Positions 4,015 through 33,684 of a stretch of DNA of 64,000 nt are shown in pieces (within the stretch, counting starts at the first letter, position 1; every line of letters starts with the position of its first letter). The notes beneath the pieces are model-generated. The model was given only the letters and a program-made list of their open reading frames with translations. It ran no database searches and was not told the DNA's origin. The stretch comes from Octopus vulgaris (lineage: Eukaryota). The DNA is taken from NCBI GenBank assembly GCA_951406725.2, contig OX597827.1, forward strand, positions 63,364,001 to 63,428,000, in the 5' to 3' direction. Made by a program: the position numbers and the translations under genes.

Positions 4015-4689
4015 TCATTCAATAAAACGACCATAAGCATCACTGACTGCGCCTATTCGTGGTCGAAATTGTTTAGAAGCTCGAATTAAGTGGATCTTGT
4101 TCGTATTGGACATGACTCGAAATATGGTGACTTTCAAAGAATCTTTGGTGCTATGGGGGTGTTCATTAACATTTTTCTCAACGATGCTCTATACATAGTA
4201 GTCCAGTAGATTGAGATCTGGAGAATTAGGAGGCCAAATGTTGGGGGTGATGTGATCATGCAAATTGTCGGCCATCCATTCTTGTATCATTTGAGCCTTG
4301 TGTGATGGTGCAGAATTTTGTTGAAACACATAAGGCCTTCCACTGCATACACTGTTACTCCAAGGCTTAACAACTTTATTCAGAACCTCAATATACGCAG
4401 CAGCATCCACCCTAATGCCGTGTGGGTGGCGTCACATGTCAATCATTGCTAACAACAGCAAAAACCATGATACTTGCAGGAAATTTTGTGTACATTACTC
4501 TTGGAACCCTAGAAGGATCTGCACATATCCATCTGTCATTTCTTCTGTTGGTTTTCTGGTTCTTTACAAAGTTTTTCTCATCCAAGAAAAACAAAATCAC
4601 GCTATCTTCTGATGGATTTTTAAATTTGTTCAAATGTCTTTTGGATCTGATTAAACGGTTTTCTTTTGTTTTTTTTTTTCTGACATGAA
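4015..4689 (-). pseudogene. Tc1/mariner DD37D (maT-type) transposase remnant, C-terminal part
   Basis: Translates FFLDEKNF...NRRNDRW...IMVFAVV...FQQNSAPSH...WPPNSPDLNLLDY...FRPRIGAV. 37 residues lie between the second catalytic position (D mutated to N) and the third D. Has frameshifts and stops; the 5' part is cut off by the satellite block at 4690. Confidence 0.85.
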
Positions 4690-5656
4690 TTGACCTCTCC
4701 TCATCATATGGAGCATATTCGTTATATGGATTTCCGAAAATTTTCATTGGAATTTACCCAAAAATTTTCGAAAATTTTCACCACAAATTTTACCCAAACA
4801 TTTTACGAAAATTTTCACGGAAAATTTTCCCCAAAGTATGGAAAGCCAGAGGTGACAAAATCATATAGTATGGAAAGCCAGCGGTGCCAAAATCACAAAG
4901 TATGGAAACCTAGCAGTGCTGAAATCACAAAGCATGGAAAGCTAGCGGTGCCAAAATCACAATGTTTGGAAGACCAGAGATGCCTAAATCATAAAGTATG
5001 AAAGGCCAATGGTGCCAAATCACCAAAAGTCTTTCCAAAATTTTCACCAAAAATCTTTCCAAAATTTTCACCAAAGATTTTTCGAAAATTTTCACAGAAA
5101 ATTTAACCCAAAAATTTTATGAAAATTTTCCGAAAATTTTCACTAAAAATTGTCCAAAAATTTTTCGAGAATTTTCACCGAAAATTTTGTCCAAATATTT
5201 TTCGAAAATTTTCACCGAAAACTTTGCCCAAAAATTTTTCGAATATTTTCACTGAAAATTTTAACCAAAAATTTTTCGAAAATTGTCCCAAAAATTTTTC
5301 GAAAATTTTCACCAAAAATCTTTCCAAAATTTTCACCAAAAATCTTTCCAAAACTTTCACCAAAAATTTTTCGAAAATTTTCACAGAAAATTTAACCCAA
5401 AAATTTTATGAAAATTTTCCGAAAATTTTCACTAAATATTTTCTCCAAAAATTTTTCGAGAATTTTCACCGAAAATTTTGTCCAAATATTTTTCGAAAAT
5501 TTTCACCGAAAACTTTGCCCAAAAATTTTTCGAAAATCTTCACTGAAAATTTTACCCAAAAATTTTTCGAAAATTTTCCCCGAGCTAAAAATAGATGTTA
5601 TGGCTAAAAATAGAATTTTAGGTGGCTGCTTCTGCTGCTTTCTTTGTATAGAGTGA

Positions 5657-5683
5657 ATTCTGGTTGAATATTACAGTCAAGAT
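5657..5683 (+). other. Putative rolling-circle origin: NANTATTAC nonamer (GAATATTAC, 5666-5674) in a degenerate stem-loop
   Basis: ATTCTGGTT-GAATATTAC-AGTCAAGAT; the arms pair with three G-T wobbles and one mismatch. The nonamer ends 7 nt before the ATG of the Rep-like stub. Confidence 0.4.
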
Positions 5684-5789
5684 GCCTCACGATCAACGAT
5701 ACACCAGATTCTACTTTACACTTAACAACTACGACCATATCGACGTTTATAGACATCAGCATATGGAGCATATTCGTTATATGGGTTTC
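5682..5789 (+). pseudogene. N-terminal fragment of a CRESS-DNA-virus-like HUH replication initiator (Rep)
   Basis: Translates MPHDQRYTRFYFTLNNYDHIDVYRHQHMEHIRYMGF. This has RCR motif I (FTLNN) near the start and a downstream RY-hydrophobic strand, as in circo/nanovirus Reps. It is truncated by satellite before motif II. Confidence 0.5.
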
Positions 5790-6976
5790 CGAAAATTTTC
5801 ATTGGAACTTTTACCCAAAAATTTTCTAAAATTTTCGCCACAAATTTTACCCAAAAATTTTACGAAAATTTTCACCGAAAATTTTACCCAAAAATTTTTC
5901 GAAAATTTTCAACAAATTTTCGGAAAATTTTCCCCAAAGTATGGAAAACCAGAGGTGACAAAATCATATAGTATGGAAAGCCAGCGGTGCCAAAATCACA
6001 AAGTATGGAAACCTGCCAAAATCACAAATATGGAAGACCAGAGATGCCAAAGTCATAAAGTATGGAAGGCCAATGGTGCCAAAATCACCAAAAGTCTTTC
6101 CAAAATTTTCACCAAAAATCTTTCCAAAATACTCACCAAAGATTTTTCGAAAATTTTCACAGAAAATTTAACCCAAAAATTTTATGAAAATTTTCCGAAA
6201 ATTTTCACTAAAAATTTTGTCCAAAAATTTTTCGAGAATTTTCACCGAAAATTTGTCCAAATACTTTATGAAAATTTTCACCGAAAACTTTGCCCAAAAA
6301 TTTTTCGAAAATTTTCACTGAAAATTTTACCCAAAAATATTTCGAAAATTTTCTCAAAAATTTTTCGAAAATTTTCACCAAAAATCTTTCCAAAATTTTC
6401 ACTAAAAATCTTTCCAAAACTTTCACCAAAAATTTTTCTAAAATTTTCACAGAAAATTTAACCCAAAAGTTTTATGAAAATTTTTCGAAAATTTTCACTA
6501 TAAATTTTGTCCAAAAATTTTTCGAGAATTTTTACCGAAAATTTTATATAAAAATTTTTCGAAAATTTTCACTGAAAATTTTCCCCAAAAATTTATCAAA
6601 AATTTTCACCAAAATTTTTCGAAAACTTTTGCCGAAAATTTTCCCCAAATTTTCCACTAAATTTTCCACTAAAATTTGCCTCCAAATTTTCCATGAAAAT
6701 TTTCACCGATAAATTTACCCAAAAATTTTTCGAAAATTTACGCATTCAAAGCAGTTTGCTAACGGCCCTTCACTAACAACATACCCTGATAGGCTTTGTG
6801 ACTACTATTAAATTAAGGCCACGACAGAGTGATAGAATGTTCTTGAAGCCAAGGATTTTAAATTTACATATCACCTGCGATATGACACAACTAGAGCTCA
6901 TAATGCAGGGAAATAGGTTCTGCACATCTGGAGATCTACGCAGCGTGCAAACAATTGTAGTGATTAAAAAATAAAT

Positions 6977-9660
6977 GTCCTCTCTGATCTCTTTCGAGAC
7001 ACCTCTTTGATCTCTTTCGGCACCCTCTTTTATCTCTTTCGGCACCCTCTTTGATCTCTTACGGGACTCCTCTTTGATCTCTAGCGGGACCATCTTTGAT
7101 CTCTTTCGGTACCCTCTTTGATCTCTTTCGGCACCCTCTATTATCTCTTCCGGCACCATCTTTGATCTCTTTCGTTACTCTCTTTGATCTCTTTCAAGAC
7201 TCCTCTTTGATCTCTTTCGGCACCCTCTTTGATCTTTTTCGGGTTTCCTCTTTGATCTCTTTCGGCACCCTCTTTGATCTTTTTCGGCACCCTCTTTGAT
7301 CTCTTTCGGCACCCTCTTTGATCTCTTTCGGGACTCGTCTTTGATATCTGTCGGCGCCCTCTTTGCTCTTTGTCGGCACACACTTTGATCTCTGTCGGCA
7401 CAATCTTTGATCTATGTCGGCACACTCTTTGATCCCTGTCGGCGCCCTCTGATCTCTGTCGGCACCCTCTTTGATCTCTTTCGGCACCCTCTTTGATCTC
7501 ATCGGCACCATCTTTGATCTATGTCGACACCCTCTTTGATCCCTGTCGGCACCCTCATACATCTCTTTCGGCACCCTCTTTGATATCTTTCGGCACTCTC
7601 TTTGATATCTTTCGGGACTCTTTGATCGATGTCGGCACCATCTTTGATCGCTGTCGGCACCCTCTTTGATCTCTGTCGACGCCCTCTTTGATCTCTGTCG
7701 GCGCCCTCTTTGATCTATGTCGACGCCCTCATTGATCCCTGTCGGCACCCTCTTTGATCTCTTTCGGCACCCTCTTTGATATCTTTCGGCACTCTCTTTG
7801 ATCTCTTTCGGGACTCTTTGATCTCTTTCGGGACTATCTTTGATCTTTTTCGAGACTCCTCTTTGATCTCTTTCAGGACTCCTCTTTGATCTTTGTCGAC
7901 GCCCTCTTTGATCTATGTCGGCACCCTCTTTGATATCTTTCGGCACCATCTTTGATCTCTGTCGGCGCCCTCTTTGATCTCTTTCGGCACCATCTTTGAT
8001 CTCTATCGGCACTTTCATTGATCTCTGTCGACACCCCCTCTTTGATCTCTGTCGCCACCGTCTTTGATCTCTGTCGGCGCTTTCTTTGATCTATGTCGGC
8101 GCCCTCTTTGATCTCTTTCAGGACTCCTCAGTGATCTCTTTCGGGACTCTCTTTGATCTCTGTCGGCACCCTCTTTGATCTCTTTCGGGGATCCTTTTTG
8201 ATCTTTTTCGGCAACCTCTTTTGTCTCTTTCGGCACCATCTTTGATCTCTGTCGGTACCCTCTTTGATATCTTTCGGCACCATCTTTGATCTCTGTCGGT
8301 GCCCTCTTTGATCCCTTTCGGCACCATCTTTGATCTCTGTCGGCAATTTCTTTGATCTCTGTCGGCGCCCTCTTTGATCTCTGGCGGTGCCCTCTTTGAT
8401 CCCTTTCGGCACCATCTTTGATCTCTGTCGGCAATTTCTTTGATCTCTGTCGGCGCCCTCTTTGATCTATGTCGGCACCCTCTTTTGTCTCTTTCGGCAC
8501 CATCTTTGATCTCTGTCGGCACCCTCTTTGATCACTGACAGCACCCTCTTTGATCACTGACAGCACCCTCTTTGATCTATGTCTGCACCCTCTTTGATCT
8601 CTGTCGGTGCCCTCTTTGATCTCTGTCGGCACTCTCTTTGATCTCTTTCGGGACTCCTCTTTGATCTCTTTCGGGACTCCTCTTTGATCTCTGTCGGCAC
8701 CCTCTTTGATCTATGTCAGCACCCTCTTTGATCTCTGTCGGCACCCTCTTTGATCACTGTCAGCACCCTCTTTGATCTATGTCGGCACCCTCTTTGATCT
8801 CTGTCGACATCCTCTTTGCTCTCTTTCGGCACCTTATTTGATCACTATCGGCACCGTCTTTGATCTCTTTCGGCACCCTCTTTGATCTCTGTCGGCACTT
8901 TCTTTGATCTCTGTCGACACACCCTCTTTGATCTCTGTCGGCACAATCTTTGATCTCTGTCGGTGCCCTCTTTGATCTATGTCGGCGCCCTCTTGGATCT
9001 CTTTCGGCACCATCTTTTATCTCTGTCGGCACCTTCTTTGATCTCTGTTGGCATCCTCTTTGATCTCTTTCGGCACCCTCTTTGATCTCTTTCGGCACCC
9101 TCTTTGATCTCTGTCGGCACTTTCTTTGATCTCTGTCGACACCCCCTCTTTGATCTCTGTCGGCACACTCTTTGATTTCTGTCGGTGCCCTCTTTCATCT
9201 ATGTCGGTGCCCTCTTTGATCCCTGTCGGCACCCTATTTGATCTCTTTCGACACCCTCTTTGATATCTTTCGAGACTCCTCTTTGATCTCTTTCGGCACC
9301 CTCTTTGATCTCTTTCGGGGCTCCTTTTTTATCTTTTTCGGCACCCTCTTTGGTCTATTTCCGGACTTCTCATTGATCTCTTTCGGGACTCCTCTTTAAT
9401 CTCTTTCAGCACCCTCTTTGGTCTCTTTCGGGACTCCTCTTTGATCTCTGTCGGCACCCTCTTTGATCTCTTTCGGGGCTCCTTTTTGATCTCTTTCGGG
9501 ACCCTCTTTGATCTCTTTTCGGACTCCTCATTGATCTCTTTCGGGACTCCTCTTTGATCTCTTTCGGGACTTCTCTTAGATCTCTTTCGGGACCCTTTTT
9601 GATCTCTTTCGGCACCCTCTTTGATCTCTTTCGGGACTCCTTTTTGATCTCTTTCGGCAC
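6977..9660. repeat. 22-bp satellite (GATCTCTTTCGGCACCCTCTTT)n, ~120 copies
   Basis: Visible directly. The variants GGCACC/GGGACT/GGCGCC and CTTT/CTGT cluster in sub-blocks. Confidence 0.97.
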
Positions 9661-9854
9661 AACCGTACCTTTGTTGTTGACTCCAATTTTTTCAGTTATC
9701 TATTCACACACGGCAGATGCCCAAACGCAAACTTGGAAATACATATAATACTCCTACTGGAAAGCCCAGTTTAAATGTTTCAGTGGACGAGCGAGCTTTA
9801 TACTGTATTCTACTATGTTCTTAACAGAATATACTATAATTATATATATACATA

Positions 9855-9985
9855 TATAAGACGGGCTTCTTATGATTTACGTCAACCAGATATACTCACA
9901 AGTCTTTGGTTGGCCCGAGTCTATAGCAGAAGACACTTGCGCAAGGTGTCACGCAATAGTACTGAACCCAGAACCATGTGGTTGG
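9855..9985 (-). mobile_element. Partial CORE-type SINE (5' half)
   Basis: Contains ACGGGCTTCTT...GAAGACACTTGCGCAAGGTGTCACGCAATAGTACTGAACCCAGAACCATGTGG. Confidence 0.8.
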
Positions 9986-10197
9986 GAATACATATATATT
10001 TATATATATCTGTATATATAAATATATACAGATATATATACAGATACGGCAAGATGTGTGTGTGTGTGTGTACGTGATTGTAGTTTATGCTCATCCACAA
10101 ATTAGCACGCATGTCGTTCAAATTTAGGAGGACATTCGTCAACATCCTATCTGGGTTTTGTCAACTTATTTTTTTCCCGAGGCACCCGCCGATAGCG

Positions 10198-10515
10198 GTA
10201 AAAATCTATTTTCATCCATAACTTTTTGCGGTAAAAATCTATTTTCAGCCATAGCTTTTTGACGGCGTCTAACAAAAAAAAACAAGATAAAGAAAAGTGG
10301 AAGAAGAGAGGCAGATAGTTTCACGGGAAAGACAAAGTGACAGAGGAAGAGAGAGTAAGTGACGACGTTCCTAAAAATCTATTTTCAGCCATAGCTTTCT
10401 GACGGCGTCTAACAAAAATAAAAACAAGATAAAGAAAGTGGAAGAGAAGCAGAGAGTTTCACGGGAAAGACAAAGTGAGAGAGGGAGAGAGAGAAAGTGA
10501 CGACGTTCATAAAAT
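10198..10515. repeat. ~140-bp tandem duplication in an unclassified repeat
   Basis: TAAAAATCTATTTTCAGCCATAGC...GTGACGACGTTC occurs at ~10232 and ~10372. Confidence 0.85.
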
Positions 10516-11136
10516 ATGAAATTTAAAATGTTTTTTCTTCTCTTAAACACGAGATATAGTGTTCAAATTCAGGATGTTTTTGAAAGACACTATATTTTAT
10601 AATCATAGTATTTATACTTTCTCACACAACAATTACAATATATTTATTTTGAATCATTTATTTATTTTAAGTCGTTCATCTTTCTCCCCCTCTCTCTCTC
10701 TCTCTCTCTCTCTCACACATTACTTTGGGCGCGAAGAGTTTTGTTTTTATTTTACGCCGAGTAAAAAAGTGTTTTGTTGACTATCCATTTATTTAACAAC
10801 AAAGAAACAAAGAGGTGAGTAGCAATTTGTCAGTGAATTGCACAATATAAATGGGTACAATTTCCGAGGCTTCCACCACACCCACTCCGTTTCACGGACC
10901 ACAAAAAGGGTTTTGTAGCATATTAGGAGGCCAGAGTAATTGATTCCACGCAAAAAAAAAACCGATTATTTTTCTTAGTGAAAATCGTGCGAGTGTTAAT
11001 CTACAAATTTAACAACATTTTTCCATTCATTTCTGTTTATGAACATGCACAAAACATGCAATAGGTGTACGTACGTACATGTGTGTTCGTGTCTGTTGCC
11101 CATATATATTTATATTATATTATATTATATTATATT

Positions 11137-11169
<33 letters not shown>

Positions 11170-11170
<1 letters not shown>

Positions 11171-11292
11171 ATATAACCAATTTCAACGGATTTTGCCCAA
11201 ATTTGACGTCGATATTACTTAGTTTGGTTTGAAATAAAGAACTTGATTAGCTTAATAATCGTAAATTAATCCCGGGCGGGTTATACTGCTAG
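11170..11292 (+). mobile_element. Degenerate Helitron 3' end
   Basis: CCCGGGCGGGTTATACTGCTAG|T has the same terminus as the element ending at 11953. Confidence 0.55.
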
Positions 11293-13883: not shown

Positions 13884-14545
13884 GGCGGCGAGCGGGCAGA
13901 AACGTTAGCACGCCGGGCGAAATGTGTAGCCGTATTTCGTCTGCCATTACGTTCTGAGTTCAAATTCCGCCGAGGTCAACTTTTCCGTTCATCCTTTCGG
14001 GGGTCGATTAAATAAGTACCAGTTACGCACTGGGGTCGATGTAATCGACTTAATCCCCTTGTCTGTCCTTTTTTGTCCCCTCTGTGTTTAGCCCCTTGTG
14101 GGAAGTAAAGAAATCGGTATTTCGTCTACCGTTACGTTCTGAGTTCAAATTCCGCCGAGGTCGACTTTGCCTTTCATCCTTTCGGGGTCGATTAAATAAG
14201 TACCAGTTACGCACTAGGGTCGATATAATCGATTTAATCCGTTTGTCTGTCCCTGTTTGTCCCCTCTGTGTTTAGCCCCTTGTGGGTAATAAAGAAATAG
14301 GTATTTCGTCTGCCTCTACGTTCTGAGTTCAAATTCCACCGAGATCGACTTTGCCTTTCATCCTTTCGGGGTCGATTAAATAAGTACCAGTTACGCACTG
14401 GGATCGCTGTAATCGAAATAGGTATTTCGTCTACCGTTACGTTCTACCAGTTACGCACTAGGGTCGATATAATCGATTTAATCCGTTTGTCTGTCCTTGT
14501 TTGTCCCCTTTGTGTGTAGCCCCTTGTGGACAGTAAAGAAATACG
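13884..14545 (+). mobile_element. Meta-domain-like SINE with tandemly repeated ~184-bp body (about 3.5 bodies)
   Basis: Head GGCGGCGAGCGGGCAGAAACGTTAGC, B box GAGTTCAAATTCC, and central GCCTTTCATCCTTTCGGGGTCGATTAAATAAGTACCAG. Confidence 0.85.
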
Positions 14546-30429: not shown

Positions 30430-31056
30430 TTTTCAAGCAACGTCCCAAGCGTGGCTCAAAATTTCTTAGCCTACAGATAGTAAGTGAGTCTGCAATTAAG
30501 ACTGCAAGCAATGATAAAGAAACTGTTTTTGAGGTTCCTGGCTTGATTGGATAATATATGCATGAAAGACGATAGACACCGAAGCAAATTTTTCGTATAA
30601 ATGAATCAGGCCTGTTTTGAAAACGAACGCTAAAACGAACTTAGATTTCCGAAGCGAATTAAATAAATAAATAAATAAATAAACTGCATTATAGTTCAAA
30701 ACTGCCAAAGATCATAAGAATTTTCTACTTGATGGTAATTATCCAGGTGATTTAAAGGTCAAGCGACTGACTATTTATAATTCTGAGGCATCACTAACTA
30801 CAAAAGGTTACTCTGAATCTCATCTTCCTATTATAAGGTGATAATCTAAAAAGGGATGGATCACCGAAACCGTTTCCCAAGATTTGTTTATTTCGTGTTT
30901 CTTCCCAGCTTTGTCAAAGAATATTTTTATGCTAAGAATCTTGAGAATAAAACCTTGTTTATCGCATACAATTTGCCATTCATTTAATCCAGGTGACCTG
31001 ACGGATGATGTTTAAGTAGCTTTTCCGCCTCCAGACACAACCAGCTTCATTTAACC
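30430..31056 (+). pseudogene. pogo/Tigger-family DDE transposase remnant
   Basis: Degenerate translations: LQIVSESA; KQIF-NESGLF*KRTLKRT*IS; LLDGNYPGDLKVK; V*VAFPPPDTTSFI*P (compare FLPPNTTSLIQP). Confidence 0.75.
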
Positions 31057-31472
31057 TATTTCTTTACTACCTACAAGGGGCTAAACACAGAGAGGACAAA
31101 CAAGGACAAACAAACGGATCAAGTCGATTATATCGACCCCAGTGCGTAACTGGTACTTATTTAATCGACCCCGAAAGGATGAAAGGCAAAGTCGACCTCG
31201 GCGGAATTTGAACTTAGAACGTAGCGGCAGACGAAATACCTATTTCTTTACTACCCACAAGGGGCTAAACACAGAGGGGACAGACAAAGACAGACAAACG
31301 GATTAAGTCGATTACATCGACCCCAGTATTCATCTGGTACTTAATTTATCGACCCCGAAAGGATGAAAGGCAAAGTCAACCTCGGCGGAATTTGAACTCA
31401 CAACAAAACGGCAGAGGAAATACGGCTACGCATTTCGCCCGGCGTGCTAACGTCTCTGCCAGCTCGCCACCT
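31057..31472 (-). mobile_element. Meta-like SINE with 2 tandem bodies
   Basis: Family of 13884; period 184 bp (31057 and 31241). Confidence 0.88.
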
Positions 31473-31811
31473 TTTTATAGCTTGTTTTAACCTATAGACA
31501 AAAAGGACAATTAAAATCTATATTTTACGGTCACCTTAAATTTTCAGATGGTAAAACTATGTCTGTTGTACAGGATCTTCGGCAGGCATTGTTGTGTGGT
31601 TAAGAAGCCGGGTTTGTAACCACGCGGTTTCGGGTTCACTCTCACTGCACGGCATCTTGCGCATATGTTTTTGCGAGTAAATTTGGTTGATGAAATCAGT
31701 GGAAGTTTGTCGCATATATACACACATGTAGACCTTCCTCTCAGGTCAACATTATTCAGTGTCCTTCGCGACAGTAAGCTGTGATTTAACAATGATTTAG
31801 TTATTATTTCT

Positions 31812-32413
31812 TATTTCTTTATTACCCACAAGGGGGTACACACAGAGGGGACCAACAAGGACAGACAAAGGGATTAAATTGATTACATCGATCCCAGTGC
31901 GTAACAGCAGGTACTTATTTAATCGACCCCGAAAGGATGAAAGGCAAAGTCGACCTCGGCAGAATTTGAACTCAGAACGTAACGGCAGACTAAATACCCA
32001 TTTCTTTACTGCCCACAAGAGGCTAAACACAGAGGGGACAAACAAGGACAGACAAACGGATTAAGTCGATTATATCGACCCCAGTGCGCAACTGGTACTT
32101 ATTTAATCGACCCCCGAAAAGATGAAAGGCAAAGTCGAGCCCGACGGAATTTGAACTCAGAACGTAACGGCAGACGAAATACCCATTTCTTTACTACCCA
32201 CAAGGGGCTAAACACAGAGTGGACAAACAAGGACAGACAAAGGATTGAGTCGATTATATCGACCTCAGTGCGTAACTGGTACTTATTTAATCGACCCCGA
32301 AAAGATGAAAAGCAAAGTCGACCTCGACGGAATTTGAACTCAGAACGTAACGGCGGGCGAAATACCACAAAGCATTTCGCCCGGTGAGCTAACGTTTCTG
32401 CCAGCTCGCCGCC
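31812..32413 (-). mobile_element. Meta-like SINE with 3 tandem bodies
   Basis: Family of 13884. Confidence 0.88.
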
Positions 32414-32823
32414 GTGTGTATCTTTCTATTTGTCCTCTACCACTGCTTGACGTCCTCGTATCTTAGCAATCTGCAAAAAAAAAGGAAATGAGTCCGAAAC
32501 AGTAATTAGTAGTCTTAATAATAAGTACTACGTCCAATTTGTTCGATTAAACACTACTAGTTGGTGCACCAGAATGACTGTATTCCAATGACTGAAACAA
32601 GTAGAAGATAAAAGACAAGTTTGCTTGATCGTGGTTGATTTGGGGTTAAACAACAACATCGACCACGCATGTACGTCAGCAGAGTAATAATAGCTACAAC
32701 AACAGCAACAACAATAAAAGTGTCATGTGTTAATAAGGTCGTAAGAAGAAAGCGAAGGCGTTGGATTAATACTGCAATCTATGTATATTTTTCTGTGCTC
32801 CCGCGTGTGTGGGTTTATCTACC

Positions 32824-33684
32824 TATTTCTTTACTACCCACAAGGGGCTAAACACAGAGAGGACAAACAAGGACAGACAAACGGATTAAGTCGATTACAT
32901 CGACCCCAGTGCGTAACTGGTGCTTATTAAATCGACCCCGGAAGGACGAAAGGCAAAGTCGACCTCGGCGGAATTTGAACTCAGAACGTAATGGCAGACG
33001 AAATACCTATTTCTTTACTACCCACAAGGGGCTAAATACAGAGAGGACAAACAAGGACAGACAAACGGATTAAGTCGATTACATCGACCCCAGTGCATAA
33101 CTGGTGCTTATTTAATCGAACCCCGGAAGGATGAAAGGCAAAGTAGACCTCGGCGGAATTTGAACTCAGAACGTAGCGGCAGACGAAATACGGCTACGCA
33201 TTTCGCCCGGCGTGCTAACGTTTCTGCCAACTCTCCGCCTTCAAATATTTTTTTCTACTCTAGGCACAAGGCCCGAAATTTTGGGGGAGAGATCCAATCG
33301 ATTAGATCGACCGCAGAACGCAACTGGTATTTAATTTATCGTTCCTGAAAAGATGAAAGACAAAGTTGACCTCGGCGGAATTTGAACTCAGAACGTAGCG
33401 GCAGACGAAATACGGCTACGCATTTCGCCCGGCGTGCTAACGTTTCTGCCAGCTCTCCGCCTTCAAATATTTTTTCCTACTCTAGGCACAAGGCTCGAAA
33501 TTTGGGGGGAGAGAACCAATCGATTAGATCGACCGCAGAACGCAACTGGTATTTAATTTATCGTTCCCGAAAAGATGAAAGACAAAGTCGACCTCAGCGG
33601 AATTTGAACTCAGAACGTAAAAATAGACGAAACACTGCAAAGCATTTCGCCCGGCGATCTAACGTTTCTGCCAGCTCGCCGCCT
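32824..33684 (-). mobile_element. Meta-like SINE (2 bodies) followed by two tandem ~222-bp copies of a related shorter-tailed SINE
   Basis: Family motifs present; duplication at 33245 and 33467. Confidence 0.85.

Follow-up and report, generated by a model that had tools for sequence, protein, structure and literature searches.

A fragment of a viral gene, almost certainly derived from a CRESS-DNA-virus rep, has become a repeated module in the genome of Octopus vulgaris, and we consider a non-autonomous Helitron to be its main vehicle, with a probability of roughly 0.6. The module of ~210 bp comprises a TATA-like box, a leader and rep codons 1-36/38. We counted at least 237 pieces of the module, grouped in 40 clusters over 13 contigs; the count covers the stretches that were fetched and is a lower bound. 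The copy described here lies in a window of 64,000 nucleotides, that is the whole stretch of DNA analysed (G000:C14:63364001-63428000, in a genome of 2.8 Gb).

The rep fragment and its copies

The left end of the array severs a decayed Tc1/mariner transposase remnant (4018-4709, minus strand). Its stretch 4192-4431 matched Pfam DDE_3 with E 2.2e-6, narrowly below the cut-off, and it has 39 further genomic copies among 40 scored, with homology reaching 4707-4709 in the best of them. At a microhomology of about 10 nt (4701-4710), the remnant is joined to a partial module with rep codons about 25-36 (4701-4735, plus strand; 33/35 nt identical to 5756-5790). The preliminary description had seen there a duplicate at 4690-4732 and read from it an "ancestral LTSPH". 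The partial module is real, but the match covers 4701-4735, and 4690-4709 is the antisense strand of the mariner remnant. LTSPH was also rejected as ancestral Rep sequence because the alignment of a real rep with the window ORF needs no insertion.

The rest of the array lies on the plus strand. An A-tract satellite with 12-, 24- and 37-bp periods (4736-5580, including a block of 32-bp units at 4832-5023) leads to a unique stretch of ~210 bp (5581-5790) and resumes beyond it (5790-6739, with a 32-bp block at 5935-6088), so that the unique stretch stands between A-tract satellite and 32-bp repeat blocks. It consists of the module 5' end (5581-5622), a (GCT)n tract with TATA-like box and leader (5623-5681), which we read as the probable core promoter and 5' UTR of rep, and rep codons 1-36 with motif I (FTLNN), which are non-functional (5682-5789). 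The 32-bp units at 4832-5023 and the 22-bp units of a further satellite (6979-9660) have CAAAG...GGTGCC in common and may be related minisatellites. Tandem units of 184-222 bp, which are putatively SINE-like, are found at 13932-14416 and 31054-33684 and also flank the C15 provirus described below.

The ATG at 5682 opening MPHDQRYTRFYFTLNNYDHIDVYRHQHMEHIRYMGF is present, and its frame is continuous before it enters the satellite. Its proposed derivation from the N-terminus of a CRESS-virus Rep is upheld by homology to endogenous reps of the same genome. A PF02407 profile search of the genome gave a single place among 3 candidates (C14:64337847, E 1.3e-19), and the rep fragment there (G000:C14:64337823, 1 Mb from the window) has an ORF of 104 residues that holds motifs I, II and III, matches PF02407 with E 5e-23 and is similar in sequence to circovirus Rep structures. 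The names given to these motifs are the usual ones for Rep. These names are also used in the accessible part of PMC10288648.

Window positions 5682-5784 align with the C14 rep without a gap (70/103 nt, 68%; pairwise E 1e-12). As a genome-wide query, the C14 rep found the window ORF with E 6.3e-5 (58% over 36 aa) and the best module copy with E 5e-10, among at least 135 matches in the best 150 of 173 candidates scored. Within residues 1-43 lie 129/135 of these matches, one is the query itself, and five are longer, contain stop codons and continue into satellite. The module lacks motifs II and III and the helicase, as had been claimed; these occur only in separate remnants: motifs I-III on C14, the helicase on C15 and C11. 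The proposed Pfam check gave no match for the window peptide at the three lengths scanned; one other module copy reached E 0.005, below the cut-off.

Between module copies and the C14 rep, pS is 0.73 and pN 0.23, which indicates that they separated at a time when purifying selection acted on the gene, and that the C14 rep is a relative of the module, not its parent. Both the C14 and the C15 rep were rejected as direct parent because synonymous sites are near saturation, and the genome-wide rep searches found no direct parent. Nor did the genome searches yield a complete rep, the copy with a continuous Rep ORF that had been proposed for a check. We also rejected the C14 ORF as a stand-alone helicase-less (Replitron-like) Rep because its stop comes 3 nt short of a junction and its relatives, including P0004, read on. 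At this junction, about 40 bp of a Merlin/IS1595-type transposase copy have given way to a ~410-bp cassette. The surrounding locus (C14:64.33-64.34 Mb) is a foreign-DNA cluster in which two parvovirus NS1 fragments (PF01057) and the rep cassette are found together with rearranged Merlin/IS1595-type transposase copies and a Tc1-like remnant. It is possibly a trap locus and lies inside the 13 Mb over which the young C14 module clade extends.

Module clusters hold 1-32 pieces each, mostly in one orientation, and A-tract satellite adjoins the module in 40/40 clusters. One exact module 21-mer has 80 occurrences, against 0 for its reversed control. Indels affect 39/142 copies spanning codons 1-34, and among the 103 ungapped copies stops are present in 27 and the ATG is absent in 12; motif I is readable in frame in 58/93 copies. 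Median identity among copies is 90%, and pN/pS amounts to 0.85 for copies of different clusters and to 0.95 for copies of the same cluster (bootstrap 0.55-1.41). Together, these substitution patterns indicate that the copies decay neutrally and that the peptide is without function.

Endogenous relatives of the parent virus

A database relative of the octopus reps (P0004) led to a locus at C15:38.11 Mb (G000:C15:38111804-38114122) that is more than one unit long. First, its origin has TAGTATTAC in a perfect 9-bp stem (z -4.4), lies upstream of a TATA-like box with 81 nt from the end of the nonamer to the rep ATG, and recurs as a second copy 2144 bp after the first. Over 175 alignment columns, the terminal repeats show 7 mismatches and a single gap of 11 nt, and this difference of 7/164 aligned positions makes dating possible. 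Second, the rep is broken, with a motif II stretch missing and frame changes, and continues into the helicase region; the C15 and C11 reps both read into an SF3-type helicase (PF00910, E 2.7e-5). Third, an opposed ORF with an Arg-rich N-terminus lies 3' of rep. For this ORF, Atlas gave a lead to capsid (score 0.90; Circo_capsid in 29-31% of cluster members) and Pfam no match, and a 34% homologue stands beside a second rep on C11 (25.61 Mb). With an origin hairpin, a helicase-bearing rep, a capsid-like ORF and a unit of ~2 kb, the C15 locus can, from its sequence, be regarded as an endogenous CRESS provirus.

The helicase part used as query gave seven further Rep-helicase places. The one on C11 is a Rep+Cap remnant; the other six are Rep-helicase remnants, also decayed, and are spread over C1, C3, C15, C17 and C30. 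The octopus reps and two to three database proteins form one group in both the nuclease-domain tree, in which three rows are short, and the helicase tree, with modest support (SH-aLRT 84 and 89). In the nuclease-domain tree P0012 falls together with the module, and P0012 and P0004 are closely related to the octopus reps. An octopus host, as had been supposed, is supported by a database protein that is 97% identical to the C15 rep and labelled Octopus vulgaris. These data indicate that the lineage is integrated at nine or more places in the genome.

A Replitron-like element had also been considered as parent. A lineage with an SF3-type helicase and a capsid-like ORF points to a virus instead, and the module arrays have no shared termini. 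To our knowledge, the hosts of most aquatic CRESS viruses are unknown; the provirus and at least eight grouping remnants tie one unclassified CRESS lineage to an octopus host.

Vehicle of the module

The satellites around the module are part of a non-autonomous Helitron, which the preliminary description did not notice. Window positions 6736-11292 represent a dispersed family (best 40 of 948 candidates scored) whose elements start with A/TC, end with a short palindrome and CTAG/T, and have no target duplication. According to the accessible part of PMC4778049, 5'-TC, CTAG-3', an AT target and a subterminal palindrome are hallmarks of Helitrons, which also capture foreign fragments. We saw the A/TC start in copies L034, L033, L214, L221, L222 and L225, and the CTAG/T end in the window, L034 and most copies fetched. 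Of the GC-rich palindrome expected about 11 nt ahead of a Helitron 3' end, these elements show a weak form: it has a 5-bp stem in the right place in three copies (z -1.2 to -1.9) and is degraded in the window and L034.

In the window, the Helitron comprises three parts on the plus strand: a unique internal arm that adjoins the array (6736-6980), 121 copies of a 22-bp satellite whose insertion point is contiguous in satellite-free copies (6979-9660), and a 3' part with 138-bp repeats, the degraded subterminal palindrome and the CTAG/T end (9660-11292). The arm has 78-84% identity to 8/11 other Helitron copies. A ninth copy, L174, matches it at 71%, and there the match continues into A-tract satellite with the same A-tract junction. 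A-tract satellite stands upstream of the Helitron 3' half in 16/20 copies (one of the 16 is doubtful, its satellite being 5.5 kb away) compared to 0/21 control stretches (Fisher p 5e-8). The A-tract satellite is an internal part of this Helitron family.

As for the module itself, a complete 3.9-kb A/TC...CTAG/T element at C14:62.43 Mb encloses a module array with an internal inversion; both Helitron arms were found around the module in 1/40 clusters. At C14:59.33 Mb a Helitron 5' arm adjoins the array, in the window array 3' arms adjoin with no 5' arm, and on C4, which is not part of the C14 clade, modules are interspersed with blocks of internal Helitron sequence. Moreover, the first ~35 bp of the module resemble, reversed, a motif of the Helitron 138-bp repeat: in the window, 5597-5622 is the reverse complement of this motif, at 88-92% over 22-24 nt to 10199-10253 and 10370-10393. 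Any Helitron arm within 4 kb was present at 7/40 clusters versus 1/20 control stretches (Fisher p 0.25), and arms were present at 4/5 loci of the C14 clade versus 3/35 elsewhere (p 0.002, tested after seeing the data). The module was found in 0/20 Helitron copies picked by their 3' half. Since 33/40 clusters have no arms, Helitron carriage is likely, not proven.

RepHel genes are abundant in the genome, with 150/150 scored Helitron_like_N matches over the cut-off and open frames of up to 1744 aa; no autonomous element was tied to the ends of this Helitron family. Eight Helitron_like_N matches lie within 190 kb at G000:C29:27.64-27.83 Mb, which suggests tandem or locally hopped Helitrons.

We propose the following history. 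A virus from a lineage with several entries into the octopus germline would have left a rep fragment in the internal array of the Helitron, with the capture junction between the viral origin and the TATA box, because the module begins with Helitron-like sequence. Unequal exchange or slippage would have multiplied the fragment locally, up to 32 pieces per array, and a RepHel transposase acting in trans would have moved module-bearing elements, most clearly in the young chromosome-14 clade that includes the window. Older arrays would have lost their arms or spread on as bare satellite, and the viral Rep would have had no part in mobility. A further step is conceivable and, in our opinion, unlikely: two unrelated rolling-circle replicons might have recombined when the Helitron acquired a CRESS rep promoter along with the rep 5' end, and the copies that it seeded at 40 or more loci might be transcribed into RNAs or small RNAs able to act on the cognate virus. 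If true, a cephalopod would possess a satellite that a transposon built from viral sequence and that serves a role in the host.

The main rival to Helitron carriage is the spread of a free satellite. Here the viral origin would be the same, but the module would have spread in a free satellite family through extrachromosomal circles, ectopic recombination or segmental copying, and the Helitron would have come in late and only in the chromosome-14 clade. This tentative explanation, which we judge clearly less likely than Helitron carriage, would fit the arm-free clusters, the coding tree, which is star-like except for a few groups, and the array ends, which have no sequence or target duplications in common among the arrays compared. 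It would also fit the upstream MITE junction common to copies on C1, C3 and C7, which suggests that flanking DNA moved along with the copies. However, it sits badly with the strong tie between satellite and Helitron, with a module 5' end that resembles the Helitron motif in most copies (131/246 starts at -110 to -120), and with the interleaving on C4, outside the C14 clade. The MITE-like element, whose position upstream of the module is identical on the three contigs, is ~370 bp long with ~120-bp inverted repeats and stands beside a (TA)n run (L022:3182-3555, L020 and L072).

The nonamer GAATATTAC is present at 5666-5674 on the plus strand as described. By contrast, the imperfect hairpin claimed for it did not hold up (MFE -1.8/-1.9 kcal/mol, z +0.9/+1.0, centroid unpaired), nor did the claim of a retained origin, given the lack of a stable stem, the rarity of the nonamer among copies and its wrong spacing to the ATG. 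The nonamer pattern has 10 matches in the window, versus 26.6 expected. Among near-full module copies, 12/136 have the NANTATTAC nonamer; at the nonamer position, 13/102 copies match NANTATTAC, of which one equals TAGTATTAC, and the commonest state is TACTACTAC (37/102), which departs from TAGTATTAC in two positions. Ahead of its ATG, the C14 rep carries GACTACTAG. No stable hairpin was found in five module or C14 tests, versus z -4.4 for the C15 origin, and a hairpin in the TAGTATTAC-bearing module copy was rejected (z -1.4).

The nonamer lies 7 nt from the ATG in the window copy. Among 114 free viral contigs examined, 78 show, upstream of rep, a stem of 7 bp or more that bears a nonamer, with a gap to the ATG of at least 24 nt (median 63). 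On a tree of the coding part, the nonamer label changes 2 times versus 11 in shuffles and marks two derived groups; this tree has 56 rows (all nonamer copies and up to two others per cluster), excludes the nonamer columns and has an unsure root on a long branch. The TATA-like box is present in 84/99 near-full copies, is degraded in the window copy and stands 40-60 nt ahead of the ATG in the C14 and C15 reps. From this we infer that promoter and leader is the best reading of the stretch. The nonamer is very probably not an origin but a subfamily variant of the leader.

These results bear on a non-autonomous element with a CRESS-type origin, mobilised by a viral or Replitron-like Rep that nicks at the nonamer. 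Rep genes in the genome, the few copies with the nonamer, a common state only two positions off, and two copies (L011 and L032) that end at or near the nick-equivalent position would agree with such an element. Nevertheless, breakpoints do not pile up at the nick site, a candidate that we rejected as the nick-equivalent bin holds 4/246 alignment starts and 0/246 ends. Moreover, the hairpin is missing, the nonamer is limited to derived groups, the spacing to the ATG is shorter than in 78/78 relatives, and neither terminal direct repeats nor a complete rep were seen. This explanation is largely refuted, and we hold it to be improbable.

Still less probable are a large number of separate viral integrations, or a short peptide that was domesticated and stays under selection. 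The integration of the lineage at nine or more places and the copies with motif I in frame could be cited for them, but the copies have a 5' junction and a 3' truncation in common and are about 90% identical, and a pN/pS near 1 leaves no purifying selection. Finally, chance likeness of satellite-adjacent DNA to motif I, which the window peptide without Pfam match might suggest, is refuted by the ungapped 103-nt alignment, the genome-wide protein matches to E 5e-10 and the synonymous-biased divergence from the C14 rep.

Relation to known systems

Searches of titles and abstract openings, in a collection with few subscription papers, found no report of CRESS elements in cephalopods, none of the present family and none of a Helitron capturing a CRESS fragment; a paper on octopus horizontal transfer (PMC6011040) has no passage on "virus". 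Our data provide evidence, apparently unreported so far, for a CRESS virus lineage with cephalopods as hosts. Among named free viruses, the nearest is Dragonfly larvae associated circular virus-10, whose Rep has a PF02407 domain, is 43% identical over the scored part of the C15 rep and falls outside the octopus group in both trees.

The following comparisons draw on the accessible parts of the papers cited. Replitrons, reported in plants, algae and protists, have no helicase and carry short terminal direct repeats (Craig 2023, PMC10288648). They have a CRESS-like HUH Rep ancestry in common with the octopus rep lineage, whereas the octopus parent combines a helicase with a capsid-like ORF, and terminal repeats were not seen. 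In the oyster, non-autonomous Cg_HINE Helentrons are reported to disperse satellite-like arrays as central repeats of rolling-circle elements (PMC7492417); the octopus termini are of the TC/CTAG Helitron type, not the Helentron type, and one of the octopus repeat modules is viral. In Tuber melanosporum, a geminivirus-like TIR transposon carries a viral rep remnant as passenger in 42 copies (PMC3198968). The vehicle in the truffle is a fungal TIR element with transposase ORFs, and in octopus the satellite array of a non-autonomous Helitron.

Endogenous CRESS reps in animals usually have fewer than 10 copies, about 60 at most, and are mostly independent insertions (Liu et al. 2011, PMC3198968). 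Like them, the octopus sequences include truncated and degraded rep fragments in non-coding DNA and several integrations of a related lineage. Unlike them, the octopus 5' fragment has common junctions and more than 200 copies as a satellite module. A fragment of a non-retroviral virus has here become a satellite module, probably amplified inside a Helitron, to numbers well above those given for CRESS sequences in PMC3198968.
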